This document shows positions 5,621 to 58,956 of a stretch of DNA of 64,000 nucleotides, piece by piece; positions within the stretch are counted from its first letter, which is position 1; each line of letters begins with the position of its first letter. The DNA is from Eubacteriales bacterium OttesenSCG-928-K08. GTDB taxonomy: Bacteria; Bacillota; Clostridia; Christensenellales; CAG-138. The stretch spans positions 29,402 to 93,401 of the forward strand of contig JAJDHH010000001.1 of assembly GCA_030266105.1 (NCBI GenBank), written 5' to 3'. The position numbers were made by a program, and so were the translations under genes. Below the pieces are notes generated by a model, which was not told the origin of the DNA, ran no database searches, and worked only from the letters and a program-made list of their open reading frames with translations.

Positions 5621-6613
5621 ATGAAAGCATACAAGGGGTTTGATAAAAACATGCAATGCCGGGGTTTTCAATTTGAGGTCGGCAAAGAGTATGTTGAGGA
5701 TCAAGCAAAACTATGTCAGCGTGGATTCCATGCGTGCGAAGCGCCGTTGGGTGTATTCCGGTACTACGCGCCAAACCAAAGCGTATACCACGAGGTGGAG
5801 CTGTCGGATGTGAGCAACGAGCGCAAGGAAGACTCCAAGGTTGTTGGTAAAAATATTAAGATAGGCGCAGCGCTTGATATCGCTGGTCTTTGCAAAGCAC
5901 AATTTGAGTTTGTAAAAGCACATACCACTTATGAGCATACCGATCCAAAACAGGCCACGGCTGGTGAGTACGGAGCCGCCACGGCTGGTGAGTACGGAGC
6001 CGCCACGGCTGGTGAGTACGGAGCCGCCACGGCTGGTGAGTACGGAGCCGCCACGGCTGGTGAGTACGGAGACGCCACGGCTGGTGAGTACGGAGCCGCC
6101 ACGGCTGGTGAGTACGGAGCCGCCACGGCTGGTGAGTACGGAGCCGCCACGGCTGGTAACAGCGGAGCCGCCACGGCTGGTGAGTACGGAGCCGCCACGG
6201 CTGGTGAGTACGGAGCCGCCACGGCTGGTGAGTACGGAGCCGCCACGGCTGGTTATCGCGGAGCCGCCACGGCTGGTTATCGCGGAGCCGCCACGGCTGG
6301 TAACAGCGGAGCCGCCACGGCTGGTGAGTACGGAGCCGCCACGGCTGGTAACAGCGGAGCCGCCACGGCTGGTTATCGCGGAGCCGCCACTAGCAAAGGA
6401 AGGGCTACCGTTGGTGAAAATGGCATCGCTTCTGTGCGCGGAAACAATGTGAGTGTTCGCGGGGGCATGGGCGCGATCCTTGTCATATGCGTTGAAAACG
6501 AAAATGATTATGACATTAAGGAATGGCGCGCTGCCGTAGTTGATGGCGAAACTATCAAGGCAGATACATGGTACACATTGCTCGACGGTCAATTTGTGGA
6601 AGTAAAGAACTAA
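5621..6613 (+). CDS. phage protein with conserved N-terminal domain and 18 octapeptide repeats (ATAGxxGA)
   Basis: 330-aa ORF. The N-terminus MKAYKGFDKNMQCRGFQFEVGKEY...GFHACE recurs in phage proteins. The centre is made of a 24-bp tandem array. Confidence 0.8.
   Translation: MKAYKGFDKNMQCRGFQFEVGKEYVEDQAKLCQRGFHACEAPLGVFRYYAPNQSVYHEVELSDVSNERKEDSKVVGKNIKIGAALDIAGLCKAQFEFVKAHTTYEHTDPKQATAGEYGAATAGEYGAATAGEYGAATAGEYGAATAGEYGDATAGEYGAATAGEYGAATAGEYGAATAGNSGAATAGEYGAATAGEYGAATAGEYGAATAGYRGAATAGYRGAATAGNSGAATAGEYGAATAGNSGAATAGYRGAATSKGRATVGENGIASVRGNNVSVRGGMGAILVICVENENDYDIKEWRAAVVDGETIKADTWYTLLDGQFVEVKN
5954..6385 (+). repeat. 24-bp tandem repeat, 18 copies, in frame
   Basis: gccacggctggtNNNNNNggagcc repeated head to tail. 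The variable hexamer is gagtac, aacagc or tatcgc (EY, NS, YR). Confidence 0.95.
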
Positions 6614-43427: not shown

Positions 43428-44069
43428 TCAACCGGCCAACTGTGGTTCAAATGTATTGGTGCGGCTGACAGCATAAGTAGTAAGATTATAATTATCATAA
43501 AAGTCATTATAAAAGTCATCAAACCCGCCGTATCCGTCAAATATTTCAAGCATTTCTTCTGCAACTGTGGTAACAATGCCCACAAATGCGAACAGAAGAA
43601 TAATTCCCAATACCAAGCAAATTCCACGCAGTATCAACATCGATATTGCAAGGTTCCGCTTATTGATGTTCTCCTTTTGGCAGGCCCAAATAATAGAAAA
43701 TATCAATCCGATCAATAGCGGCAAGAGCATCACAATGATGTAGCCGACATACTGCCCGACGCTTAATGTTTCGGAACTGTTATTTGAATTTGTGGAGACA
43801 TAAGTTTGCCCGTATTGTGGCGGGACATTCCCGCTTTGCGTTGAGTCGCCCGGCGACCTTGGTGCGCTTCCATATCCATACGAATAGGACGAATTGTTTT
43901 GTCCGTAATATGAGTTTGTTGGTTGGCCGGCATTATCACTACTTTGGTTGTTTGTATCATATTCCTTAGGAGGTTGCGCGGCCGAAAGCTCCCCCATCAG
44001 TGCGCCACACTCTACACAAAACAGTGCGGTTTCCACATTGCCATGCCCGCATTTTATACAATACCTCAT
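43428..44069 (-). CDS. zinc-ribbon membrane protein with Q/N/S/Y-rich linker
   Basis: MRYCIKCGHGN...CVECG zinc ribbon, low-complexity linker, C-terminal TM helices. Confidence 0.7.
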   Translation of the reverse strand: MRYCIKCGHGNVETALFCVECGALMGELSAAQPPKEYDTNNQSSDNAGQPTNSYYGQNNSSYSYGYGSAPRSPGDSTQSGNVPPQYGQTYVSTNSNNSSETLSVGQYVGYIIVMLLPLLIGLIFSIIWACQKENINKRNLAISMLILRGICLVLGIILLFAFVGIVTTVAEEMLEIFDGYGGFDDFYNDFYDNYNLTTYAVSRTNTFEPQLAG

Positions 44070-45367: not shown

Positions 45368-45651
45368 GAAATGGATTGTCTCCTTCAAAGTTACGTTATT
45401 ATGGAGCGAGTCTCCTGTTTGGATTATACATGCAAAAACAAGCCGGGCGCATGCATCCCGGATGATTTCAGTATACATTATAAATCCTCATGACGCAAGA
45501 AAAGCAGGAGAACCGACATTTTTAGCCGTTAAGGGCGTAAAAACTTACAATTTTTTGTATGTTTAGCATTTTGTTTCCGAACAAGCTTATAACATCCGCC
45601 TTTTCAGTTTTTATCAATTTTTCGATCCTTTTTCAGCGCGGCAAAAAGCGT

Positions 45652-45680
45652 TTGACAAGCATAATGTGTAGTGATATAAT
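45652..45680 (+). promoter_or_regulatory. consensus promoter of the tRNA-Lys module, copy 1
   Basis: TTGACA, 17 nt, TATAAT. Confidence 0.75.
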
Positions 45681-45800
45681 CCTAACCTGTGGGGCTAAAA
45701 CGGCAAAAATCAGCGGTTCTGCTCTTAAGCATAAAAAACGTTAGACCTTTGAGAAAGCCTGGAATATGCGCAAGCATAGGTTGCCCACACCACAAAGCAT

Positions 45801-45877
45801 GCCTCCTTAGCTCAGTTGGCTAGAGCACCTGACTCTTAATCAGGGTGTCGGCGGTTCGAGCCCGCCATGGTGTACCA
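45801..45877 (+). tRNA. tRNA-Lys (anticodon CUU), copy 1, with poorly paired acceptor stem (possibly chimeric or defective)
   Basis: The 5' 49 nt are identical to copy 2. Anticodon loop CTCTTAA. The 3' strand ATGGTGT gives two C-U mismatches and two G-U pairs against GCCTCCT. Confidence 0.65.
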
Positions 45878-45893
45878 TTTACATTAGCACATG

Positions 45894-45933
45894 TGGACAA
45901 ACCTTCGATAAACAAAGGGTTTGTCCATTTTTT
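45894..45933 (+). terminator. rho-independent terminator
   Basis: TGGACAAACC...GGTTTGTCCA followed by TTTTTT. Confidence 0.75.
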
Positions 45934-46068
45934 ATTGTCCAAGCATTTTGCCATGTTTAACTCGAATTTAACATTTGAGACCCCCTGATTTTTTGGTGGT
46001 TTTGGCAGGATCAGCGGTTCACATTTTTGTCGTTCCATATGAATATATTTTTATATGGAGGCGATTTT

Positions 46069-47034
46069 ATGAGAACAAAAATTTTAATGCAAACGGTCGA
46101 ACTTCCAACGCTTAAAGAATCATATCTTAGATTTTTACAGAACAAAAGAATTGCGAATGTTTCGGCGGATACCATTAGGTATTATGATGGCGTATACAAA
46201 ATGTTTAGTGACTTTACGGGGGATAATTTCCCTTGCGATTCTATCGCAAAGGAAACCGTCTTTGAATTTATAGAGCATATGAAAAAGCAAAACCCCAATA
46301 TACGCGATACATCTATAAATTCATACCTTCGAGGCGTCCGATCATTCTTGTATTTTTGTATGGAGGAAGGGTTAACCCAAAGTTTTAAAATCAGCCTGAT
46401 AAAGGCGGAAAAACAGCTAAAAGAAACGTACACCCATGCAGAGCTGGAACGTCTGCTGAAAAAACCTGAAATAAAAAAGTGCGAGTTCTCAGAGTACAGG
46501 AATTGGGTAATAATATGCTATCTTTTAGGAACTGGAAACCGCGCGCGTACGCTATGCAACGTTAAGATTGGTGATATAGATTTCGATACCCATGAAATAA
46601 AGTTAAAAGCTGTAAAGAACAGTAAGCAATACATAATCCCATTGTCTAAAACCCTGGAAAAGACCCTTGTAGAGTATTTGGGATATAGGCAGGGGACGGC
46701 AGATGATTATCTCTTCTGTAATATATACGGGCAACAATTAGGGCAAGAAGCCCTCAAAACCGCTATTAGGAGATATAATAATGCACGTGGGGTATCTAAA
46801 ACAAGTATTCATCTCTTTCGCCATACCTTCGCGAAAAATTGGATTTTAAACAACGGAGATATATTCAGACTTCAAAAGATACTTGGGCATTCAAGCATTG
46901 AAATCGTGAAAGAATACGTCAATATGTTTGGCAATGATTTACAGATGAATTTTGCCGAGTTTAACCCCCTTGATAATATGGAGATAATGAAGCGCAATAA
47001 CGGGGCAATAAAAATGCGTGGTGAGGGTAATTAA
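46069..47034 (+). CDS. tyrosine recombinase/integrase (XerC/D-like)
   Basis: ARTLCNVKIGD (R), HLFRHTFA (HxxR), LGHSSIEIVKEYV (H...Y). ATG at 46069 after GGAGG. Confidence 0.9.
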   Translation: MRTKILMQTVELPTLKESYLRFLQNKRIANVSADTIRYYDGVYKMFSDFTGDNFPCDSIAKETVFEFIEHMKKQNPNIRDTSINSYLRGVRSFLYFCMEEGLTQSFKISLIKAEKQLKETYTHAELERLLKKPEIKKCEFSEYRNWVIICYLLGTGNRARTLCNVKIGDIDFDTHEIKLKAVKNSKQYIIPLSKTLEKTLVEYLGYRQGTADDYLFCNIYGQQLGQEALKTAIRRYNNARGVSKTSIHLFRHTFAKNWILNNGDIFRLQKILGHSSIEIVKEYVNMFGNDLQMNFAEFNPLDNMEIMKRNNGAIKMRGEGN

Positions 47035-47078
47035 CGTTAATGCTAACAGACAAAAAACTACACAGACGGGCATTCATT

Positions 47079-47342
47079 TTATGAAGGCTCGTTTTTCTTT
47101 TTTATCACTTCTAATATTGCTGGAATCTTAACGAGTTCATTCAAAAAATGTTCAAACTCATCGGGCGGCATATCCTTGCAGTTTAGGTATTGTTCGGCGA
47201 GTGCGCCGTTTTGGATCAGGCGGCGGGTTCGTTCTTTGCGGGCGCGTTCTTTGTCGCGGGCGATAATTGCTTGCTGCTGAGCTTTCATTTGGGTGATTTT
47301 TTCGTTTAGCTTTTCGAGGCGTTGTTTCTCTTTTTCAGTCAT
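47079..47342 (-). CDS. DUF3847-like coiled-coil protein (relaxase-associated in Firmicutes elements)
   Basis: MTEKEKQRLEKLNEKITQMKAQQQAIIARDKERARKERTRRLI. ATG at 47342 after AAGGAG. Confidence 0.65.
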   Translation of the reverse strand: MTEKEKQRLEKLNEKITQMKAQQQAIIARDKERARKERTRRLIQNGALAEQYLNCKDMPPDEFEHFLNELVKIPAILEVIKKKNEPS

Positions 47343-47535
47343 TTCACTTACTCCTTTTTCGCATGGCACGTTCTGGAATCGGCACACCTACAGACAATAT
47401 ATGCATATTGCCTGTAGATTGCGCCTCCCGAACGTGCGATTTTGTGCGCGCATTTTATTGGATGCAAAAAATATTGGCTTCCAGATGCAACAAAATTTTA
47501 AGCGAACTTGGGTGTAGGCGGCGCGCAAAAATCCC

Positions 47536-47567
47536 GAAGGGCGCACTTATACATTCTTCGAATGTGT
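47536..47567 (-). other. oriT (MOBQ-type nic region)
   Basis: The minus strand reads ACATTCGAAGAATGT-A-TAAGTGCGCCCT. That is an inverted repeat followed by the TAAGTGCGCCCT nic core known from RSF1010/R1162-type and pIP501-type oriTs. Confidence 0.7.
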
Positions 47568-47878
47568 GCGCCCGCACGTCGCAATACTCTCCGCTTATCG
47601 CTTTGGTCTGCGCCCAAAGCTTAACGCTTCGAGATTGCTCCTCTTTCCCGCAAAAGCTTGCTTTTGCGGGAGCCCTTTTGCGGGGTGTGACGGGCTTCGC
47701 CCGTACCTGCACGTTGTGCAGGTAATACGGCAACGCTTTTTTTGCGTTGCCTGCTTATTCGTGCATCACAAAAAATGCGATGCACGAATAAGATATAGAA
47801 AAAGCAAGGAGCAGCCTCGAAGCGCTGAATTTCAGCCGTCCTTGGCTGAAATGATTAAGCGAAGAGTGATGTGACGAT

Positions 47879-49303
47879 ATGGCAATTTATCACTGTAGTG
47901 TAAAAATCATAAGCAGAAGTGCGGGGCGCTCTAGCGTTGCCGCCGCTGCCTATCGTTCGGGTGAAAAATTGCATAATGAGCGTGATGGGTTGACGCATGA
48001 TTACACGCGAAAATCGGGTGTTGTTCATAACGAAATTATCTTGCCGGAAGGTAGCCCGACTGAATTTCGAGATAGGTCTATTCTTTGGAACGCTGTGGAG
48101 AAAGCCGAAAAGCGGATTGATGCACAGACGGCACGAGAGGTTGAAATTGCATTGCCTGTGGAGTTTAGCTTGCAGGAGCAAATCGAGGTTTTGAGGGAAT
48201 ACGTGCAGGATAATTTCGTCTCAAAGGGGATGTGTGCGGATGTGGCTATTCATGAAGGGGCCCCCGCAAAAGCCCAGCGTAGCGGGTTTTGTGGGGAAAA
48301 GGAGCAGCAGTGCCGTGAGCGAGGTGTTGGGGCGGATTTTGCCCCAACACGAGAGGACGGGCACTTGTTGCGACGTAATCCTCATGCTCACATTCTTTTG
48401 ACGATGCGGGAGGTTACACCTTCCGGCTTTGGCAAGAAAAATCGGGGCTGGAACGACAAGGCGCATCTTGAAAAGTGGCGGGAAAATTGGGCAGATGTTT
48501 GCAATACGCGTTTATTGGCAAAGGGTCATGAACGTATCGATTACCGTTCATTAGAGGCGCAAGGGATAGACCGCGAGCCGACTATTCATGTGGGATACAG
48601 CGCTTTGGCTATCGAAGCGAAGGGGCGAACAAGCGAAAGAGCGCAGGAAAACCGCGCAATCATCGAGCGAAACAAAGGCATGAACGCCCACGAATTAGCC
48701 GAATATCTGCATGAGCTAAAAGCCTGCCACGCAATTTTGGATAAACAAATCATGGCGATAAAGCAAGAAGAAGCAAGCCGGAAGGATAATTTGCGGCGGC
48801 TTTATTGCAGGGCGGAAGATATCGAGGAACAGGCGACAGACATTCGCGCGCTTGGCGAAAAGATTGCAGAGCTTGAAACGAAAAAGCAGGGCATGGGGCT
48901 GTTCCAGAGCAAGAAGGAGATAAACACTCAAATTAGCGGGCTTTATGATTCCCTTACTCGTGCACAGGATCACTTTGTGCGCGAGTTTCGCATATCACAC
49001 GAATATGCGGAGCATGAAATAACGCGCATCACGGCCGAGGCTGCGGCTTTGCGCCAAATGCCGGAAGCAGACTTTAAGACGCTTTTAGACAACCGCCATG
49101 AAATTGAGAAGGAATACCGCGCGTTTACTATGATTGCACAAATGCGCGAGGATAGAAAAGATATTGCAGACACATTAAAACGCCTGCACAAGGAAGAGGC
49201 GGCGCATTCGGTCAAAGACATGCTTGCCCTATCGAACGCCGAGCGTAAGCTCAGCGAGAAGGCGAAGGGCAACAGGTTGCCAACGCACGGGCGAGAACGA
49301 TAA
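47879..49303 (+). CDS. MobA/MobL-family (MOBQ) relaxase
   Basis: MAIYHCSVKIISRSAGRSSVAAAAYRSGEKL (catalytic Tyr region) and NPHAHILLT (HxH metal site), with a long coiled-coil C-terminus. Confidence 0.9.
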   Translation: MAIYHCSVKIISRSAGRSSVAAAAYRSGEKLHNERDGLTHDYTRKSGVVHNEIILPEGSPTEFRDRSILWNAVEKAEKRIDAQTAREVEIALPVEFSLQEQIEVLREYVQDNFVSKGMCADVAIHEGAPAKAQRSGFCGEKEQQCRERGVGADFAPTREDGHLLRRNPHAHILLTMREVTPSGFGKKNRGWNDKAHLEKWRENWADVCNTRLLAKGHERIDYRSLEAQGIDREPTIHVGYSALAIEAKGRTSERAQENRAIIERNKGMNAHELAEYLHELKACHAILDKQIMAIKQEEASRKDNLRRLYCRAEDIEEQATDIRALGEKIAELETKKQGMGLFQSKKEINTQISGLYDSLTRAQDHFVREFRISHEYAEHEITRITAEAAALRQMPEADFKTLLDNRHEIEKEYRAFTMIAQMREDRKDIADTLKRLHKEEAAHSVKDMLALSNAERKLSEKAKGNRLPTHGRER

Positions 49304-49371
49304 AAAAGGTGTTATCCAGTTCCTAACATGAATAGGTATAGCTATTCATGTTGGCGGGAGGATGTGTAACT

Positions 49372-50868
49372 ATGGGCAGTCCACACGAAGAAGGGATAAA
49401 AATATTTTTGTCTATTATTCGAGCTATCTTCAAGCCGGTGTTAAAGCTCCTGTGGTTCACAGGGCTAATATTTCCGGTTATTTATTCGTTGTGGTTTGAA
49501 GAATCTGAATTGGCATTAAACATTTCATGGATTCTAGCTATTATTTTGTTTATCGTAAACATAGTCAGATGGTGGGGCAAAAAAGGGGCGCATCCTGTGA
49601 AGGAAAAGAAACGCACACAGCCGAAAGTTAACGATATACTGACGAGCGACACGCCCCATGGTGTGATATTTGGCAGGAAACAGCACAAATATATCGTGAA
49701 ACCGGAGGGGATTGACGGGCATGTGTTAACCGTTGGCGGTGTGGGAAGCGGGAAAAGTTCTTGTATTGCGATCCCAACCCTCAAAGGCTGGAACGAGCGC
49801 GTGTTTGTGATAGATATCAAGGGCGAGCTATATGAAAATTCATCGAAGGAACGCCAGGCGGTGAAGGTGTTTAATCCGTTGGATGAACACTCTTGCGGGT
49901 TTGATCCGTACTACCTTCTAAAAACCAGCCACAACCCGCCGCAGGAGGCAAAGGCGATTGCGCAGGCGATCATCCCTCTGCCGCCAGATGTGAAAGACCC
50001 GTTTTGGATCGAAAGCGCGCAAAACATACTAACAGCGGCGATATTGCACTATTCTAGTCTTGGACTTTCCTTCTTGAAAACGGTCGAGGCTATGCTAACA
50101 CCGTCTCCCGCGGGATTGATCGAAGAATTGTCAAACAGCCCGCAAATGGCGGCGCGGCTGTATGTGTCCAGCTTTGTGGATGCGGATAACAGGCTTTTGT
50201 CTAGCGTTATGACAGAGCTTGATAGGAATATCATCCCATTTGTGACCGACCGAAACCTAATTTCCTGCCTGTCGCGCAAAAGGAACATCACCCCCGCAAA
50301 CTTAGAGCGCGGGTATGACATTTTTGTGCATATCCCGGAACACCTTTTAAGGCAGTGGAAGCCGCTTTTAACCTTGATCGTCAACCAGTTTTTAACCTAC
50401 TTCGAAAGGCGCGATGAAAAAAGCGCAAGCCCGATCCTTTTTCTGCTAGACGAGTTCCCCCGCCTAGGCAAAATCAGCGCAATGCTGGACGGCTTGGCAA
50501 CCTTGCGCTCGAAAAAGATCACGATCTGCCTGATAATCCAAAGCCTAGCGCAGTTAGACACGATCTATGGCACGAATGCGCGCAAGGTCATCGCCGACAC
50601 ATGCGCCTACAAGGCGATTCTAGGCGCAACGGACGCCGAAACGCAGGAGTATTTTAGCCGCTTGGTCGGCACATTTGAGAAAACAAAGCACTCAAAAGGC
50701 ACACAGACCGACCCATATTTAGGCACACCGCGCGGCAAAACCAAAAGCACCACAACGGAAGAAAAACGTATCATCAAACCGGAAGAGTTCGCCACCCTAA
50801 ATGATATCGTGCTCCTAACCCCCTACGGCTACTGCCGAGTGGATAAAGCACCGTATTATTCGGGATAG
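49372..50868 (+). CDS. type IV coupling protein (VirD4/TraG family)
   Basis: N-terminal TM helices, Walker A VGGVGSGKSS, Walker B LFLLDEFPRLGK. ATG at 49372 after GGGAGGA. Confidence 0.88.
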   Translation: MGSPHEEGIKIFLSIIRAIFKPVLKLLWFTGLIFPVIYSLWFEESELALNISWILAIILFIVNIVRWWGKKGAHPVKEKKRTQPKVNDILTSDTPHGVIFGRKQHKYIVKPEGIDGHVLTVGGVGSGKSSCIAIPTLKGWNERVFVIDIKGELYENSSKERQAVKVFNPLDEHSCGFDPYYLLKTSHNPPQEAKAIAQAIIPLPPDVKDPFWIESAQNILTAAILHYSSLGLSFLKTVEAMLTPSPAGLIEELSNSPQMAARLYVSSFVDADNRLLSSVMTELDRNIIPFVTDRNLISCLSRKRNITPANLERGYDIFVHIPEHLLRQWKPLLTLIVNQFLTYFERRDEKSASPILFLLDEFPRLGKISAMLDGLATLRSKKITICLIIQSLAQLDTIYGTNARKVIADTCAYKAILGATDAETQEYFSRLVGTFEKTKHSKGTQTDPYLGTPRGKTKSTTTEEKRIIKPEEFATLNDIVLLTPYGYCRVDKAPYYSG

Positions 50869-51028
50869 GAATGTAATTATTAGGTTAAAAGTTTTCTCCA
50901 TTTATTGCTAATATGTAGCGTGTTTGATATACTTATTTACGATAGATAAAATAGAAATATTGTGTGTTTCCTTAATGCCTCGAGGCATTTCCAACTACCT
51001 TTAATGTTCTACGAAAGGGATAACACAA

Positions 51029-52510
51029 ATGAAAAAACGTGCTATTTCGCTGATCCTGGCGTTTTGCATGCTGGTTGCATTGTTGCCAACCATCACTTTT
51101 GCGGCAACGAGTGACGGTTATGGGTATCGAGTTTTATCGGACGGAACGGTAGAGATTTCAAGTTATAGCGGCAAAGGCGGTAAGGTAACGATTCCTTCCA
51201 CCATTGACGGTATGCCTGTAACGCGCATCGGGGAATGGGCATTTTCCGGATGGGAAGAAGGGTTGACAAGCGTAACCATCCCTGAGGGCGTAACGCATAT
51301 TGGTGAATCCGCATTCGATAAGTGCTTTGATTTGAAAAATGTAAGTATCCCCGAGAGTGTTGTTTACATAGGCGCAGATTCCGGAATCCCAATTCCCTCC
51401 GGTCATTCTGGAGATTTCTTTATCGTAAACGATATCTTAGTCAGGTATACAGGGACAAGCTTAGATGTCGTCATTCCCGATGGGGTAAAATCTATTTCTT
51501 CTGCTTTTTCAGAGAACTACCCCCTTTGGGGGGAAGATGGGGTTGACCTTAGAACTATTACAAGCGTGTCTATTCCAAATAGTGTGGCCAGCATTGGAGA
51601 CAGAGCTTTTTGGACGTGTTTTGACTTGGAAGAGGTAAAAATCCCCTACGGAGTAACAAGCATCGGAGATGGTGCATTTTTTCTTTGCAGGAACTTAAAA
51701 AGCATTACCATCCCCGCCACTGTAACCTATATTGGTGATAACGCATTTTCAGGCGAAGAGGGATGGAATGTTTATCTCAAATCGGTCAATTTTGAAGGTA
51801 AACCGCCCCAAATCGGCGAGGAGGTATTTCATTATGCCGACCCCGATTTAACGCTATATTATCCTGCAATCTATGTCTTTCATTGGGCGCCAAACGGCGA
51901 AACTACTTGGAATGGGTATAGAATTGCACAGCTTGGGTCTGAGAGGAATGAAGAAAGGGCAGAAGACTGGAGAATGAGGGAGGAATGTCTTCAACTTTTG
52001 GAAGGCAAATATTCGGAAAAGGAATGGAAAAAAGCAACCAAAAATGGAAGAAAAGAAATGTTAATATCTTTATTTAATGATGTTAAAGAAATATTAAATT
52101 TAAGTGATAGTTGGAAAATATACTTTGAAGAACTCGGATTTTTCTATTATGGAAAGACTGATGCATATTTAAATGAAAATACTAATGAATATGAAAACAA
52201 GGTAATAATAGCCGATAAATTTGGATACACCAATTACTACCTCATGATGCGAACCGTTATCCATGAATGTAGGCATGCTTATCAACGGGAGGTAATACTT
52301 GGGGAAAACGACCATATAGTAAGCGACATGACAAGGCAAAAGTGGCTTGATAGTTCCTTGAAAGGTAAGTATATACATAATGATTCAATTAATAGCAGAC
52401 CATATTTTCAACAAGCAGTTGAATGGGATGCATATTATTTTGCCGGACAAGAAAATAAGCTTAAGGGTAAGACGGCAGATTATGCCGGTAGCTGGCCCAA
52501 TAAAATGTAG
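51029..52510 (+). CDS. secreted BspA-type leucine-rich-repeat protein with C-terminal HExxH domain
   Basis: Signal peptide. Repeated ...IPxxVTxIGxxAFxxCxxL... units. C-terminal VIHECRHAYQ zinc-metalloprotease-like motif. Confidence 0.8.
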   Translation: MKKRAISLILAFCMLVALLPTITFAATSDGYGYRVLSDGTVEISSYSGKGGKVTIPSTIDGMPVTRIGEWAFSGWEEGLTSVTIPEGVTHIGESAFDKCFDLKNVSIPESVVYIGADSGIPIPSGHSGDFFIVNDILVRYTGTSLDVVIPDGVKSISSAFSENYPLWGEDGVDLRTITSVSIPNSVASIGDRAFWTCFDLEEVKIPYGVTSIGDGAFFLCRNLKSITIPATVTYIGDNAFSGEEGWNVYLKSVNFEGKPPQIGEEVFHYADPDLTLYYPAIYVFHWAPNGETTWNGYRIAQLGSERNEERAEDWRMREECLQLLEGKYSEKEWKKATKNGRKEMLISLFNDVKEILNLSDSWKIYFEELGFFYYGKTDAYLNENTNEYENKVIIADKFGYTNYYLMMRTVIHECRHAYQREVILGENDHIVSDMTRQKWLDSSLKGKYIHNDSINSRPYFQQAVEWDAYYFAGQENKLKGKTADYAGSWPNKM

Positions 52511-52522
52511 GGGTGATGGTTC

Positions 52523-53044
52523 ATGAAAAAACTAATGATAATTATTGCTTTAATCTGTGCCGTTTGCTTTATTCTTCCCTTGCTAACATCTTGTAGCAGT
52601 GGGGGGTCTGAGACCGATAAAAACTTAGAAATTAGCAAGAGCAAGAATTTGTTAAAGGATACATTGATGGACAATAACTATCTAGTAGAGCTTATGGATG
52701 AAGATGAAAGTTTAACTGATGCTGAAGAAGGTCTTGATGAGGCTATGAAGGAATTGGCTGAAAAATTATTTCATCTAAACATTCGAAATATTAAAGAAAC
52801 GCATGTAGTTGGGCATGATGAAAATGGTTGGGAAATATCGGTTATTACTGATTCGGGTAGGGTCTACTGCTTAATATTAGACAAATATGGATTTCTTCTT
52901 CAGGCAATGAAGGACGATATAGTTGATGGCGAAGAAGTTTATTTTGATGCCACAGATGATCTTTCGGATAATTTCCTGTTTGAAGATCTTGAAGATGTGG
53001 AAAAACAAAGAAAATATTATAAAGAGCGCCAAAATGCTAAGTAA
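52523..53044 (+). CDS. acidic lipoprotein
   Basis: Lipobox LLTSC after a hydrophobic signal. The mature part is rich in D and E. Confidence 0.7.
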   Translation: MKKLMIIIALICAVCFILPLLTSCSSGGSETDKNLEISKSKNLLKDTLMDNNYLVELMDEDESLTDAEEGLDEAMKELAEKLFHLNIRNIKETHVVGHDENGWEISVITDSGRVYCLILDKYGFLLQAMKDDIVDGEEVYFDATDDLSDNFLFEDLEDVEKQRKYYKERQNAK

Positions 53045-53134
53045 TTAGTTGTTATAAGGTTTATATAGAGGTTAGGGTTCATAAAAAACTTCCAATTATA
53101 CATAATCGTCTTACCCCCCCTTTTTGTAGAATAA

Positions 53135-53780
<646 letters not shown>

Positions 53781-53782
<2 letters not shown>

Positions 53783-53940
53783 AGGTACACTTTTGCGAAA
53801 TGGCATCAAAACATGTTCCTTTTAACTAAAAATCAACATTTTATGTAATTTGAACGTAAATTTCATAAGAAAGCTGTTGAAAATACCATAATTATCCGTT
53901 ATAGTGATAAATATAACCGACTTCGCAAAAGTGTACCTTT
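53781..53940. promoter_or_regulatory. candidate invertible DNA element (19-bp perfect inverted repeats flanking a 122-bp promoter-bearing segment)
   Basis: AAAGGTACACTTTTGCGAA at 53781-53799 and its exact reverse complement at 53922-53940. Each site has internal dyad symmetry around GGTACAC. Confidence 0.6.
53877..53905 (+). promoter_or_regulatory. promoter inside the invertible segment, currently facing the downstream genes
   Basis: TTGAAA, 17 nt, TATAGT. Confidence 0.55.
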
Positions 53941-53996
53941 GCGGAATGGTTATATCCACCTTCGAAAAAACTAATTGTACGAAAGGAAACAGCAAC

Positions 53997-54464
53997 ATGC
54001 CATCAAACACCGAGACATTTCAGGGAGGACACAGTTGTTATTATCACTCTGGCTCTTTAGTGGTTGGGACTTGTGATATTTGTGGCAAGAATTTGTGCAG
54101 GGAATGCTTTGATGAGACACAAGGAATTTGTCCACAATGCGTGACTGATGTATTTAAAGAGAAAAGGCGAGAGCGAATAAAAAACCTTGTTATTGATGGC
54201 ATATTTACAGTTCTTATATTTCTTTCTATTATGCTTAATTCACTATTATTGGATGTGTCTTACATTCCGGTATACGTATTTGTGTTCAGTGTACTCATTT
54301 CTGGATGGTTGACAATTAACCGCTTTAGAAGATGGAGGCAGACAGAGGTAATATCGATATCTATAATAGGGATTTTTATAAAACTGATGATTTCTCTACC
54401 TGTTGGCGTGTTTACGCCAGTAATTTTAGTTTATGATATTGTTCTTTTATTGATGGGAAGATAG
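53997..54464 (+). CDS. zinc-ribbon membrane protein
   Basis: CDICGKNLCRECF...CPQC followed by four hydrophobic helices. ATG at 53997. Confidence 0.6.
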   Translation: MPSNTETFQGGHSCYYHSGSLVVGTCDICGKNLCRECFDETQGICPQCVTDVFKEKRRERIKNLVIDGIFTVLIFLSIMLNSLLLDVSYIPVYVFVFSVLISGWLTINRFRRWRQTEVISISIIGIFIKLMISLPVGVFTPVILVYDIVLLLMGR

Positions 54465-54644
54465 GCTCGCAGTTAAACGAAAGCTAATTTTTGGAATTTA
54501 CTATTGTAAAATTAAAGAATATATGGTAGAATTATGGTGTTAAATTCATTTCTAGATTAATGCCTGATTTTATACAACTTCATAGGACTAAACGGCGGTC
54601 ACTCTAATACTACTTGAGGAAAATGAGGAAGGAACTTTATTCCC

Positions 54645-57600
54645 ATGAAAGCAAGAAAAATTTTCTCTTTGGTTGTCGTGTTGGCGATAATGGTTTCTGT
54701 CTTATGTCCTATGGCGACAATGGCGGCTCCCCCCGATGTTTCGGCGCGAAGTGCGTATGATTTGGTTGTTGGGGAAACATATGCCGAATTGTTCGGATAT
54801 GTTAATGCCAATAAGGGGATCGAGATTGAGGTACAGGGATTTGAGTATAAAAAAGCGTCTTCTGGTTCGTGGAAGGAGTGTGAACCGTATAAGCCGAAAG
54901 ATCCAGATGACAGAGAAATAAAGTACACACTAAGAGGGTTAGAGCCGGGCACAACCTATGATTATCGTGCCTTTGCGGTGAATGTAAACGGCGAAATTAG
55001 CCATTCTGCTTCTGTGCGCTTTACCACAAAATCCGTTTCAGACAATATAACGGTTAGCTCATTTAAAAACCATACCATCACAGAGGGCGATATTCTAAGG
55101 ATAGCATCGGGCAAGGTAACATCAGAAAGCAGCAACCTAACAATCGTTACGGTAAATGTCTATAGTGCATCAACAGGCGATATTGAAGCAACAGACAAAT
55201 ATCGGTTCAAAAACGTATAATCTTTCCGGCACAGAGCTAGACACCTCTAAGCTTAAAGCAGGAACATACGACTTGAATGTGTGGGCTAAAAATGCAACGG
55301 TGACCTCCCCCACAAGACCGCAATACACAGTCACCCTAACAGTTAAGGCAAAGGCAACACCAACACCAACACCGAAAGCTACGCCGACACCCACCCCAAA
55401 AGCCACTGCTACGCCGAAAGCAACGCCGACCCCCACAGTAACCCCAAAAGCTACCCCAATGCCTTCGGATAATATAACGGTAAGTTCGCTAATAAACTAC
55501 ACCATTACCGAGGGCGATATTCTAAGGATAGAATCGGGCAAGGTAACATCAGAAAGCAGCAACCTAACAATCGTTACCGTGAATGTCTATAGTGCCGCAA
55601 CCGGCGATATTGAAGCACGAAAGACCAATATAGGCGCAAAAACGTATAGTCTTTCCGGAACAGAGCTAGACACCTCTAAGCTTAAAGCAGGAACATACGA
55701 CTTGAATGTGTGGGCGAAAAATGCAACGGTGACCTCACCTACAAGACCGCAATACACGGTCACCCTAACGGTTAAGGCAAAGGCAACACCAACACCAACA
55801 CCGAAAGCTACGCCGACACCTACAGTAACCCCAAAAGCAACACCAACGCCGATAGTAACACCAACACCCACGCCGCTTTCGGATGAAATCTCAATTTATG
55901 GTCTTCAAAATCATACAATCATACAAGGCGAAAAACTGACCATAGCATCCGGCATGGTCACATCGCAAATAAGCGATTTATCAATGGTTACCGTAAATAT
56001 CGAAAATTGGGGTCTTGATAAGCGAACGGAAACTTCCGGCACAAGAATACATTTCCTTGAAGGCACGGTAGTTAACACTTCCAGCCTCCCCATCGGAACG
56101 TACACGGTTCAGGTGTGGGCAAGAAACGCAACATATGATGGAATAAAAATCGGCGTGTTTACGCTTTTTGTTAAACCAAATGAAAATGACAATATCACGG
56201 TTACCGGTCTATCGAACAGAACCATCACGGAGGGCGAAACACTTATATTGAATTCTGGTGTGGTAACATCGGGAAGCAGTGATTTAATTAAGGTCACGGT
56301 GAACACCTATAACCCGGAAACAGGCAGAGATATTGCAGCGCCTAAAAGCAATATAGGTGCAAAAACATATTCCCTCTTAGGCACAATCTTAGATACATCA
56401 ACCCTCAAAGCAGGCACGTATAATGTAAACGTTTGGGCGAGCAATGCGACCTATACAGGCGTGTTTCTTGACTCGTTTGTTTTGACGGTAAAGGCTGCCG
56501 CTCTAAATCCGCAGATTTCGAATTTCAAAGCCAGCAAAACCGTTATAACCGAGGGCGGAGATTTTTATCTTACCTACGATACAAATGCGGATGTGAAAAG
56601 TGTAAGAATATATGTTAATGGTGGGTTTTGGGCACCACAAACAATGAAAGAGGGTATATCAAGCTATTCAACAAGAATAATTGATTGGCTTACAGCCGGA
56701 ACGCATACCATTAAAATTTGCCCCATTGACAAAAATAGAGTGGAATACACAAGTCCGGACTATGTTAAGACGGTAGAGGTTACGGTTAAAGCTGCCCCCA
56801 AGCCATCCGCCCCAATAGGCAATTATTGTCCAACCACTGCAACAGGCGGACAGTATTATTCACTGTCGTGGCTAAAATCCGAGTTTGCAACTGGTTATGT
56901 CGTCAATTGGAGCTTTGAGGGAACAAGCGGGTCAAGCGGCTTGATTCATGACTTAGAGTATGGTTGGAATCTGGCCAATAAGCCCGGAACAATGTATGTA
57001 GATGTGTTTGCAATCAATTCCAGCGGTCAAAGCAGTGCATTGGCTGTTTCTGTTGCTGTGACGGCTGTTAAACTACAAAAGCCAACAATAAACGGTTATG
57101 AGGACAATAAGCAGATTCAACCTGGGGAATTTAAACTTTCCGGCACCTATGACGATGCAAACGTAATTGAAGTTAGCTTAAGAGATTTGAACTGCAATCC
57201 AAACGGTGCCCCGACCTTGATTGCGTCAAGCGAGAATTCGATAAATACGGTTTGGGTTACTCATGGTAAGCCAAATATTTGGGAATATACAATCCCTTCA
57301 TCGTATATACATGCTGGGCATAATTATCAAATTTGGGTTGAGGCGCAGGAGATTAAAGACAGCCCCCAAAATAATGGGATTTTGATGCGGTTTAATGTGT
57401 TTAATATATCACAAGATGGAATAACTAATGACGGAAAGTTTTCACCAATATGGCCAACACCTGGTTCGTTTAGAGTCAATAGCCTTGAATATTATCCGCA
57501 GAGTGGTGGAGCGCACCGATTGTCAATTGATATAGATGGAATAGTATCAAATAAAATTGTAGTGGCAATTGAAAAGGGTGTTGTTATTAATATTGTTAAC

Positions 57601-58011
57601 GGGTGTCAGCATAAAGGGATGAAAAATTGTGGTCATTCACAGGATGGCGCGAGTGGCAATAGTGTTTGGATATTACACGATAATGGATATACATCATTTT
57701 ATGGGCACTTGGAGTATGGCTCTATTGTTGTAAATAACGGTCAAAGAGTAAACAAAGGTCAAAAATTAGCACTGATGGGAACAACGGGGAACTCTTCAGG
57801 AGTACACCTTCATTTTCACGTTAAAGATAAAAAAGGCGGTAACCAATATCCGATTTTTAAAGATTATCTAAAACAATACGGAAATCAATTCACGTACCCA
57901 TTAATTAATGAATTTGATGGAAGTCAAGGGATCTTGCCTAAATCGAAAAAGCAAGAATATATTGATTGTTATGCAGGCATCCCTGATTATGTCTTTAGAA
58001 AATTCACTTAA
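54645..58011 (+). pseudogene. giant secreted surface protein (Fn3-like domain, four Ig-like modules with PT linkers, C-terminal M23 peptidase) interrupted by a frameshift near 55191
   Basis: ORF 54645..55220 has a signal peptide. ORF 55156..58011 continues the same repeat module in the +1 frame. Compared with repeat copy 2, copy 1 lacks 2 nt. M23 block: HDNGYTSFYGHL...GTTGNSSGVHLHFHV. Confidence 0.7.
55038..55878 (+). repeat. two near-identical tandem copies (about 0.42 kb each) of an Ig-like module plus (K)ATPTPTP linker
   Basis: Long identical stretches, for example gagggcgatattctaaggata...caggaacatacgacttgaatgtgtgggc. Two more diverged copies follow up to about 56500. Confidence 0.9.
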
Positions 58012-58027
58012 AGGAGACTTTTAAATA

Positions 58028-58576
58028 ATGAAAATACTATTAAGAAATTTGTTATTAGTTTTTTTATGCCTCATTTGTTTATCAGCATGTTCAAATAGAA
58101 TCGATAACTCGACTAATAGAACAGAAAACAATGTAGAAGAAAATGATTTAAATAAGGATGAATTTATAGATGAGGGTGAATGGAGCGATTCTCCGATAAT
58201 GGGCGTATATGCTTTGTCGGGTTACTATTATGTTCCAAAAGACACTCCAATATCAGAAAACGTTGCGAAAGATTTGGAAATGCAAACAATTATAATAAAT
58301 GTGGATGAAGTTTCTTCGTCATCAGTAACAACAAAATCCCCTGTGTTTACCTTGGCAAGCATTGGCTTGTCCGAATTAATGGATATGGGTTTCACGGAAG
58401 AACAAGCAATACATCAAATTGGTATAGATTCAGCTAATGAAGCGGTTGTATATTTAGTTTCTGATACACTTGGAAATTCATTTAAATTATTTCGCATAAT
58501 GGACGATGAGCTTAACCGTTTGCTCTATGTTAGCAATACAGGATATATATATTATTTGGAGAGGATTAATGAATGA
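58028..58576 (+). CDS. lipoprotein
   Basis: Lipobox LSAC after a signal peptide. 182 aa. Confidence 0.7.
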   Translation: MKILLRNLLLVFLCLICLSACSNRIDNSTNRTENNVEENDLNKDEFIDEGEWSDSPIMGVYALSGYYYVPKDTPISENVAKDLEMQTIIINVDEVSSSSVTTKSPVFTLASIGLSELMDMGFTEEQAIHQIGIDSANEAVVYLVSDTLGNSFKLFRIMDDELNRLLYVSNTGYIYYLERINE

Positions 58577-58730
58577 TGTAGATAATATTGTTGTAGTTTA
58601 AATAAGGTTTATCAAGTAATGTCATTTGGATAAACTTTTATTTGTTTGGTTTACTGTGGATGCTTCTTATCGAGCCTAAAATATAATCTTAGTGGTCGTT
58701 CGCTTGATTTTTGCTTTGGATAAAAAGCGT

Positions 58731-58759
58731 TTGACAAGCATAATGTGTAGTGATATAAT
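58731..58759 (+). promoter_or_regulatory. consensus promoter of the tRNA-Lys module, copy 2
   Basis: TTGACA, 17 nt, TATAAT, identical to 45652-45680. Confidence 0.75.
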
Positions 58760-58879
58760 CCTAATCTGTGGGGCTGGAACGGCAAAGATCAGAGGTTCCG
58801 CTCTTGGACAAGAAAAACAATTAACCCATGAAACCCGCCTAGAATGGGCAAAACAAGGTTTATCCACACCACAAAACAT

Positions 58880-58956
58880 GCCTCCTTAGCTCAGTTGGCT
58901 AGAGCACCTGACTCTTAATCAGGGTGTCCAGGGTTCGAATCCCTGAGGGGGTACCA
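58880..58956 (+). tRNA. tRNA-Lys (anticodon CUU), copy 2, well-paired cloverleaf
   Basis: GCCTCCTTAGCTCAGTTGGCTAGAGCACCTGACTCTTAATCAGGGTGTCCAGGGTTCGAATCCCTGAGGGGGTACCA. All seven acceptor positions pair (two G-U). Confidence 0.9.

Follow-up and report, generated by a model that had tools for sequence, protein, structure and literature searches.

The genome of Eubacteriales bacterium OttesenSCG-928-K08 carries two inverted repeats with a promoter between them, placed immediately behind a gene for a small serine recombinase, and this arrangement raises the question of whether the locus is a switch that turns downstream genes on and off and, if so, whether the switch is still in use. An earlier note on this DNA had described a phase-variable promoter, currently ON, that is controlled by the adjacent recombinase and carried on a mobilizable element. 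We assessed these claims in the window (the whole 64-kb stretch of DNA that was analysed, to which all coordinates given here without a locus name refer) and by comparison with homologous loci in other genomes and metagenomes. From sequence comparison, the window locus is very probably a working-type ON/OFF phase-variation switch driven by the adjacent recombinase, of a kind that is familiar in bacteria, with an enzyme from the Sin-like branch of the serine recombinases.

The repeat itself is exact: AAAGGTACACTTTTGCGAA occurs at 53781-53799 on the + strand and its reverse complement at 53922-53940, and with ≤3 mismatches allowed these remain the only two matches in the 64-kb window, against 0 in 100 dinucleotide-preserving shuffles. 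Both the coordinates given earlier and the overlap with the recombinase stop codon (TAA, 53780-53782) were verified. The repeat reaches 22 nt, of which 21/22 are complementary (53778-53799 and 53922-53943), with 122 nt between the arms, and each arm belongs to a 26-bp imperfect palindrome of 12-2-12 form, in agreement with the earlier description of imperfect palindromes with an asymmetric core. Site L (53775..53800, + strand) reads CTTCGTAAAGGT-AC-ACTTTTGCGAAA, with the predicted crossover at the AC of 53787-53788; site R (53921..53946, + strand), its inverted copy, reads CTTCGCAAAAGT-GT-ACCTTTGCGGAA, with the central GT at 53933-53934. The two sites match at 22/26 positions, and all four mismatches lie outside the 19-nt core. 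Between the central dinucleotides lies the putative invertible segment of 144 bp (53789..53932), homologous segments of which are found in both orientations at two related loci. Its interior is 74% A+T, and the centre-to-centre distance from L to R is 146 bp, or 13.9 helical turns. The flanks beyond the palindromes are direct rather than inverted repeats, each site being preceded by AACCGAC and followed by (A)ATGG (repeat family D1).

No accessory (site II-like) half-sites were detected, the four half-sites of L and R being the only matches at 0-1 mismatch, and window-wide half-site counts at up to 2 mismatches equalled the chance expectation. A half-site-like sequence in the middle of the segment, ACGTAAAT (about 53855-53862), is not conserved in the relatives and was therefore rejected as a candidate accessory site. 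A search against Rfam returned no known RNA element in the switch/leader region.

The promoter that the earlier note had placed between the sites was recovered: TTGAAA-17-TATAGT (53877..53905, + strand) faces the downstream genes, scores 10/12 and has a predicted start near 53912. This score is the joint highest among 11 promoter-like sites in 53000-54800, where it is also reached by three + strand sites and one - strand site. A transcript made in the present orientation would carry at its start a predicted hairpin of about -16.6 kcal/mol (53908-53955; ATATAACCG...site R...TGGTTATAT); this hairpin lacks a U-tail and could serve to stabilise the 5' end rather than to terminate transcription.

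The recombinase gene (53159..53782, + strand; likely start at 53159, behind the ribosome-binding site GAAGGGGGG) encodes 207 aa and is the sole serine recombinase gene of the window. Its product (P0001) is identical (100%) to the NCBI protein recorded for this organism, and exact-protein look-ups with both possible starts returned no further contig with an identical protein. Pfam Resolvase (PF00239) covers residues 4-147 (E 1e-25), the open reading frame is intact, and all catalytic residues are present, with Y6, R8, S10, D67, R68 and R71 invariant in an alignment of 34 family members; the family is very large, with >8000 homologues at E below 1e-20. No Pfam HTH family was found in the C-terminus even at E 10. 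The best PDB match of the single sequence is Sin/Bin3 (2r0q, E 1.5e-28), and a profile of the family aligns with Sin over its full length, including the C-terminal domain (Sin residues 2-197; E 4.8e-37), ahead of the gamma-delta (E 5.5e-27) and Tn3 resolvases (both about 1e-26) and far ahead of Gin (3uj3 and 4m6f; E 1e-18 to 2e-18). The signature SGK...IDRLGRNY is common to this protein and to Sin/beta. Since Sin and gamma-delta resolvase score closer than Gin, membership of the Hin/Gin family was rejected; membership of the Mpi family was rejected as well, the NCBIfam Mpi equivalog model (NF009949) giving 39.8 bits against a cut-off of 272. The serine recombinase named in the earlier note is thus confirmed; judged by its homologies, it acts in the manner of Hin-type invertases yet falls within the Sin-like branch.

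Directly 5' of the recombinase start, a GC-stemmed hairpin followed by a T-run (53117..53151, + strand) gives a terminator-like match with a fold energy of -24.7 kcal/mol, and its 3' arm is the ribosome-binding site just mentioned. Equivalent hairpins precede the recombinase genes of the relatives L006 (about 5960-5995), L007 (5959-5992) and L008, at a conserved -20 to -25 kcal/mol. This element may insulate the gene from upstream transcription and limit translation of the recombinase. Its loop region also contains TGTAGAAT, which resembles an extended -10 box.

To what extent the arrangement is shared was assessed at eight loci with recombinases 68-79% identical to that of the window (L006, L007 and L008, and the loci of P0115, P0069, P0041, P0083 and P0067). 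The layout is kept in every such locus examined (7-8 loci): the stop codon lies in or just before L, an A+T-rich interior of 110-130 bp with a promoter within the site pair follows, then R with its centre inverted, then a ribosome-binding site and a gene. The pairing of recombinase and switch proposed earlier is borne out by this conserved linkage of gene, site pair and promoter. In L006, L007 and L008, even the position of L relative to the stop codon is that of the window. The same layout also appears in more distant loci (L012-L014, L017, L022 and L055), including several from viral-contig collections with 58-66% identical recombinases, and a tblastn search of plasmids returned only relatives below 60% identity. 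Across loci, the inner half-site AAARGT and the AC/GT centre are conserved, and the outer half-site varies by locus (TTCGTA, TATC, TGTC, GTCTC, GTCC or TTACAG) while remaining the same in L and R within each, a pattern expected of site pairs that evolve together with their own recombinases. In every locus, L and R carry their central dinucleotides in inverted orientation. Centre-to-centre distances (114, 135-147 and 156 bp) tend to be whole multiples of the 10.5-bp helical turn (Rayleigh p about 8e-4; 12 loci, not all of them independent). A symmetric AT centre replaces AC/GT in L119-L124 (the P0083 locus), L013 and L055, so that in these loci the core by itself can neither exclude deletion nor dictate which way the reaction runs; yet both orientations are seen at the P0083 locus.

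That such segments invert is indicated by opposite orientations between identical flanks in independent metagenome assemblies. At the P0115 locus, with relaxase and recombinase genes before the switch and a P-type ATPase gene behind it, nine assemblies have one orientation and L095 has the other; at the P0083 locus, with HSP70-like cargo, two assemblies have one and three the other. Flipping the segment in silico between the predicted central dinucleotides made L119 match L121 over 3018 bp (0 mismatches), and made L089 match L095 over 3618 bp save for 1 mismatch, located outside the switch. The inverted repeats at these loci are 23-26 bp long and the k-mers in those contig names that carry one are k87-k141; the repeats being shorter than the k-mers, we infer that an assembler could not have flipped the segment without junction-spanning reads. 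On this comparative evidence from two homologous loci, the recombinase-linked switch family is one that inverts in nature, which, together with the conserved layout and the exact in-silico flips, upholds the earlier reading of a phase-variable switch. By homology, the window copy would still flip.

In which state the window stands was called from the flank signature and the position of the promoter. Identity of the segment interior to the relatives was tried as a test of orientation and rejected, as it is about 45-49% either way. In L006, L007, L008 and nearly all other assemblies, the promoter (TTGACA-17-TAGAAT in L006 and L007, TTGACT-17-TAATAT in L008) lies beside L and points towards the recombinase gene, and site L of the relatives is an extended palindrome, for example GACTTCGTAAAGGT-AC-ACTTTTACGAAGTC. 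An in-silico flip of the window turns its L into AACCGACTTCGTAAAGGT-AC-ACTTTTGCGAAGTCGGTT, and only after this flip do the -35 and -10 boxes of the window share alignment columns with those of the relatives; GGTACACTTTTGCGAAGTCGGTTATATT is the sequence that would be expected of the opposite orientation at the window switch. The flank complement, which lies beside L in the relatives, lies beside R in the window, where AACCGAC at 53915..53921 (+ strand), inside the segment, repeats in direct orientation the sequence that flanks site L on its outer side (53769-53775) and is the mark of the flipped (ON) state. An identical relocation of the flank separates the two observed states of the P0083 locus, and it is this relocation, together with the position of the promoter beside R, on which the ON call for the window rests. 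Over the assemblies read, the tally is about 39 OFF versus 4 ON. By these sequence marks, the window is in the minority ON state: compared with the three closest relatives its segment is inverted, and the promoter is directed at the downstream genes. The ON orientation proposed in the earlier note is thereby supported.

The switch lies in an integrative mobilizable element of about 13 kb (45878..58721), delimited by Pfam matches, tRNA copies and flanking repeats. It encodes a tyrosine integrase (46027-47034), a MobA/MobL relaxase (47879-49303), a type IV secretion system (T4SS) coupling protein (49348-50868) and a BspA-LRR protein (51029-52510), and it is bracketed by two copies of tRNA-Lys(CTT) (45802-45877 and 58880-58956) that, with their upstream regions (45643-45877 and 58722-58956), are ~85% identical and 13,079 bp apart; housekeeping genes lie to its right. 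The integrase, relaxase, coupling protein and paired tRNA-Lys copies bear out the earlier description of a mobilizable element. Upstream of the right-hand tRNA-Lys copy stands a perfect TTGACA-17-TATAAT promoter with TG (58731-58759). The cassettes of the relatives also adjoin relaxase genes, from three families (MobA/MobL, PF03432 and Mob_Pre).

Three genes follow the switch within the element, and the earlier note had described its promoter as facing all of them. The only gene certainly downstream of the invertible promoter is that for a zinc-ribbon membrane protein (53997..54464, + strand; 155 aa), recognized by CxxC...CxxC and hydrophobic segments and without a Pfam match. The next, for a secreted Fn3/Ig-repeat M23 peptidase with a signal peptide (54645..58011, + strand; Pfam), consists of two overlapping open reading frames in different frames (54645-55220 and 55156-58011). 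The spacing of its internal repeats (55037-55823) shifts from 427 to 429 bp at about 55190-55193, where repeat 1 lacks 2 bp relative to repeat 2, pointing to a 2-bp loss and a frameshift, which would reflect either a pseudogene in the ON-state locus or a sequencing error. A 180-bp gap separates the two genes; it contains a promoter-like TTGTAA-17-TAGAAT with TG (extended -10; 54504-54532), and a terminator-like hairpin lies in the 3' end of the zinc-ribbon gene (54401-54422). With the frameshift, the separate promoter-like site and the preceding terminator-like hairpin, the switch may control only the zinc-ribbon gene; the predicted reach of the promoter thus stands for this first gene and is doubtful for the M23 gene. 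The last gene of the element (58028..58576, + strand) encodes a lipoprotein, recognized in translation by its lipobox LSAC, with no Pfam match. A second zinc-ribbon gene (43428-44069, - strand; 213 aa, Zn_Ribbon_1) stands just outside the element beside an EPSP-synthase-family gene and is not obviously related to the switch cargo.

Cargo is unrelated between loci. The first cargo gene again encodes a zinc-ribbon protein in L007, L012 and L099; cargo unrelated to that of the window stands behind the homologous switches of L022 (about 3790 onward), L089 (2395 onward), L119 (2010 onward) and L013, namely a C5 DNA methyltransferase, a P-type cation ATPase, an HSP70/MreB-like protein and a 931-aa protein of unknown family.

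Site sequences of this type also occur in another setting, which bears on what the pair in the window is for. When genome and metagenome collections were scanned with the site sequence, every hit was a lone site upstream of a distant resolvase gene, and the window locus did not recur; viral contigs scanned with two site patterns gave no match. In five regions (L001, 2280-2390; L002, 12511-12670; L003, 2437-2600; L004; L005), the 19-nt core occurs once, 35-165 bp upstream of genes for 37-40% identical serine recombinases, and extra TTCGYAAA-type half-sites overlap the TTGACT-17-TACAAT/TAGAAT promoter of the resolvase gene. We rejected these regions as invertons, their core being site I of a classical res-like arrangement; their sequences suggest that the inverton probably arose from a resolvase/res system, with regions of the L001-L005 type as the source of its sites. 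The same regions, the kinship of the enzyme with the resolvase Sin and the constant position of the cassette beside a relaxase gene on mobilizable elements would all suit palindromes that serve as res-like multimer-resolution sites of an excised circle, or as operators that let the recombinase repress the intervening promoter. Such functions would not, however, account for L and R centres that are inverted rather than direct in every locus, for exact inversion at two homologous loci, for a promoter that serves cargo genes and not the recombinase, or for the lack of accessory half-sites, and we consider it very improbable that they replace inversion, although resolution between the L sites of a multimer might occur besides it. 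Still harder to sustain is a chance inverted repeat, or a plain terminator of the recombinase gene with no part in recombination: L can indeed fold as a hairpin right after the stop codon, but the shuffled sequences yielded no match, a second inverted copy is kept 135-156 bp away in many loci with covarying arms, and the relatives show both orientations, so that this reading is refuted by the comparative data to the point of being negligible.

A different doubt concerns the window alone, namely that the family inverts but this copy is a relic fixed ON, with no meaningful flipping. The genome is known from one assembly and the recombinase from a single contig; the sites differ at 4 of 26 positions, if only outside the core; the main cargo gene is frameshifted, which would fit decay of the module; and ON is the minority state among the relatives. 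Against this stand an intact recombinase with every catalytic residue, a 19-nt core that is identical in L and R, and an overall agreement between the two sites that equals or exceeds that of the relatives, including L099, L109 and L008. Taken together, these features make a frozen copy unlikely, and a working switch remains the reading that we prefer.

Inversion at such a switch may also remodel site L. In 6/7 close loci, the hairpin at L is 9-17 kcal/mol more stable in the OFF than in the ON state (window, -25.2 versus -11.3 kcal/mol; L006, -21.3 versus -9.7; L008, -17.9 versus -1.1; L099, -24.9 versus -15.4; L109, -22.6 versus -12.4). On the bottom strand of the window subfamily, the L stem is followed by a U-rich tract, encoded by lysine codons of the recombinase C-terminus, and L006 has UUUU at site L on the top strand as well. 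From these predicted folds, L in the OFF state may act as a terminator that stops transcripts running out of the recombinase gene as well as those started at the outward-facing promoter. No state-dependent L hairpin is seen at the P0115 locus, so the terminator idea is not general.

The switching cycle that we propose begins with dimers of the 207-aa Sin-like recombinase, which would bind the two 26-bp sites (12-2-12), L on the enzyme's own stop codon and R 146 bp downstream, and bring them into synapsis across a short, A+T-rich, helically phased loop. Cleavage at the central AC/GT, rotation of half-sites and religation would then invert the 144-bp segment with its sigma-70-type promoter. In the ON state, the promoter would read through R into the zinc-ribbon gene and might reach the M23 and lipoprotein genes beyond it; in the OFF state, predominant among the relatives, it would face the 3' end of the recombinase gene, and L would be rebuilt as a 36-38-bp palindrome flanked by T-runs, a putative bidirectional terminator that would make OFF tight. 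Recombinase and switch would together form a portable cassette that stands beside relaxase genes on mobilizable elements of gut Clostridia, before unrelated cargo. For the window itself, that the promoter is active, how far the operon extends and by what chemistry the reaction proceeds are predictions.

A more ambitious combination of these elements, which we put forward tentatively and regard as rather less probable than its negation, is that inversion both turns the promoter and assembles (OFF) or dismantles (ON) a bidirectional intrinsic terminator from the half-sites and flanks of L, insulating the OFF state from recombinase read-through and from antisense transcription. The cassette of ~0.8 kb, with a Sin-like enzyme, two bare 26-bp sites 13-15 helical turns apart and no accessory sites, would then be a portable module placed before arbitrary cargo on mobilizable elements of gut Clostridia, and might double as a device for multimer resolution.

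Among known systems, Hin-hix of Salmonella (with Gin, Cin and Pin) shares with this locus a small serine recombinase, two inverted 26-bp sites (12-2-12), inversion of the segment between them and ON/OFF control of surface-related genes. It differs in three respects: here the segment does not include the recombinase gene, whose stop codon falls within L; the segment measures 144 bp rather than about 1 kb as for Hin; and so short a segment offers little room, or evidence, for a Fis-bound enhancer. Fis is not known in the Firmicutes. The closest characterised relatives are Sin of Staphylococcus and beta of pSM19035, which align over their full length and share the signature and the asymmetric AC centre. 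The beta recombinase inverts as well as resolves. In these systems, the res site lies upstream of the gene, whereas here inverted sites surround a promoter, and an accessory site II and HU/Hbsu are needed there, whereas no accessory half-sites are detectable here. For Sin, the AC centre gives site I its polarity and an AT centre permits both resolution and inversion, and the wild-type enzyme requires site II and HU (PMC2764113).

The Mpi and capsular-polysaccharide invertons of Bacteroides fragilis likewise use a serine recombinase to flip short promoter segments ahead of surface structures. The segments flipped by Mpi are under 200 bp. Mpi acts in trans on many loci, in another phylum and at another repeat motif, whereas the enzyme studied here is tightly linked to one site pair, and the 64-kb window contains no other such site. 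The invertons of Bacteroidales integrative conjugative elements, and others of the type catalogued by PhaseFinder, resemble this locus in combining an invertase and an invertible promoter on a mobile element, and differ from it in that here the enzyme is a Sin-like serine recombinase, the elements are small and mobilizable, and the hosts are Clostridia. In the Bacteroidales elements, a local invertase and invertible promoter precede highly variable cargo (PMC8748976). The inverton 'group 145', which is linked to a relaxase and MobC (PMC11892184), was considered as a prior description of the present family and rejected, as it concerns hsdS genes and tyrosine recombinases.

The literature that we covered contained several kinds of invertible switch (Hin/Gin, Mpi, the RecV switches of C. 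difficile, the PhaseFinder and DeepInverton catalogues and the promoters of Bacteroidales conjugative elements) and no description of a Sin-like Clostridial inverton family, although coverage was incomplete and absence is no proof. The core motif, when searched in full texts, gave only unrelated matches of the primer type. Invertons of Clostridia are sparse and mostly linked to tyrosine recombinases. Although the kind of switch is familiar in bacteria, the Sin-like, Clostridial and portable family is thus apparently undescribed.

Together, these results would add to the Clostridia a widespread and well-defined family of invertible promoters linked to serine recombinases. The recurrence of the cassette on mobilizable elements, before cargo as different as zinc-ribbon membrane proteins, large secreted proteins and a P-type ATPase, suggests that phase-variable expression may be transferred horizontally as a unit, with a potentially phase-variable methylome where the cargo is a C5 DNA methyltransferase. 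A mechanistic question is also raised, namely how Sin-like inversion would proceed on a short loop when the relatives of the enzyme need accessory sites and HU. A minimal toggle for Gram-positive engineering could follow, consisting of one 207-aa enzyme and two 26-bp sites ~146 bp apart.
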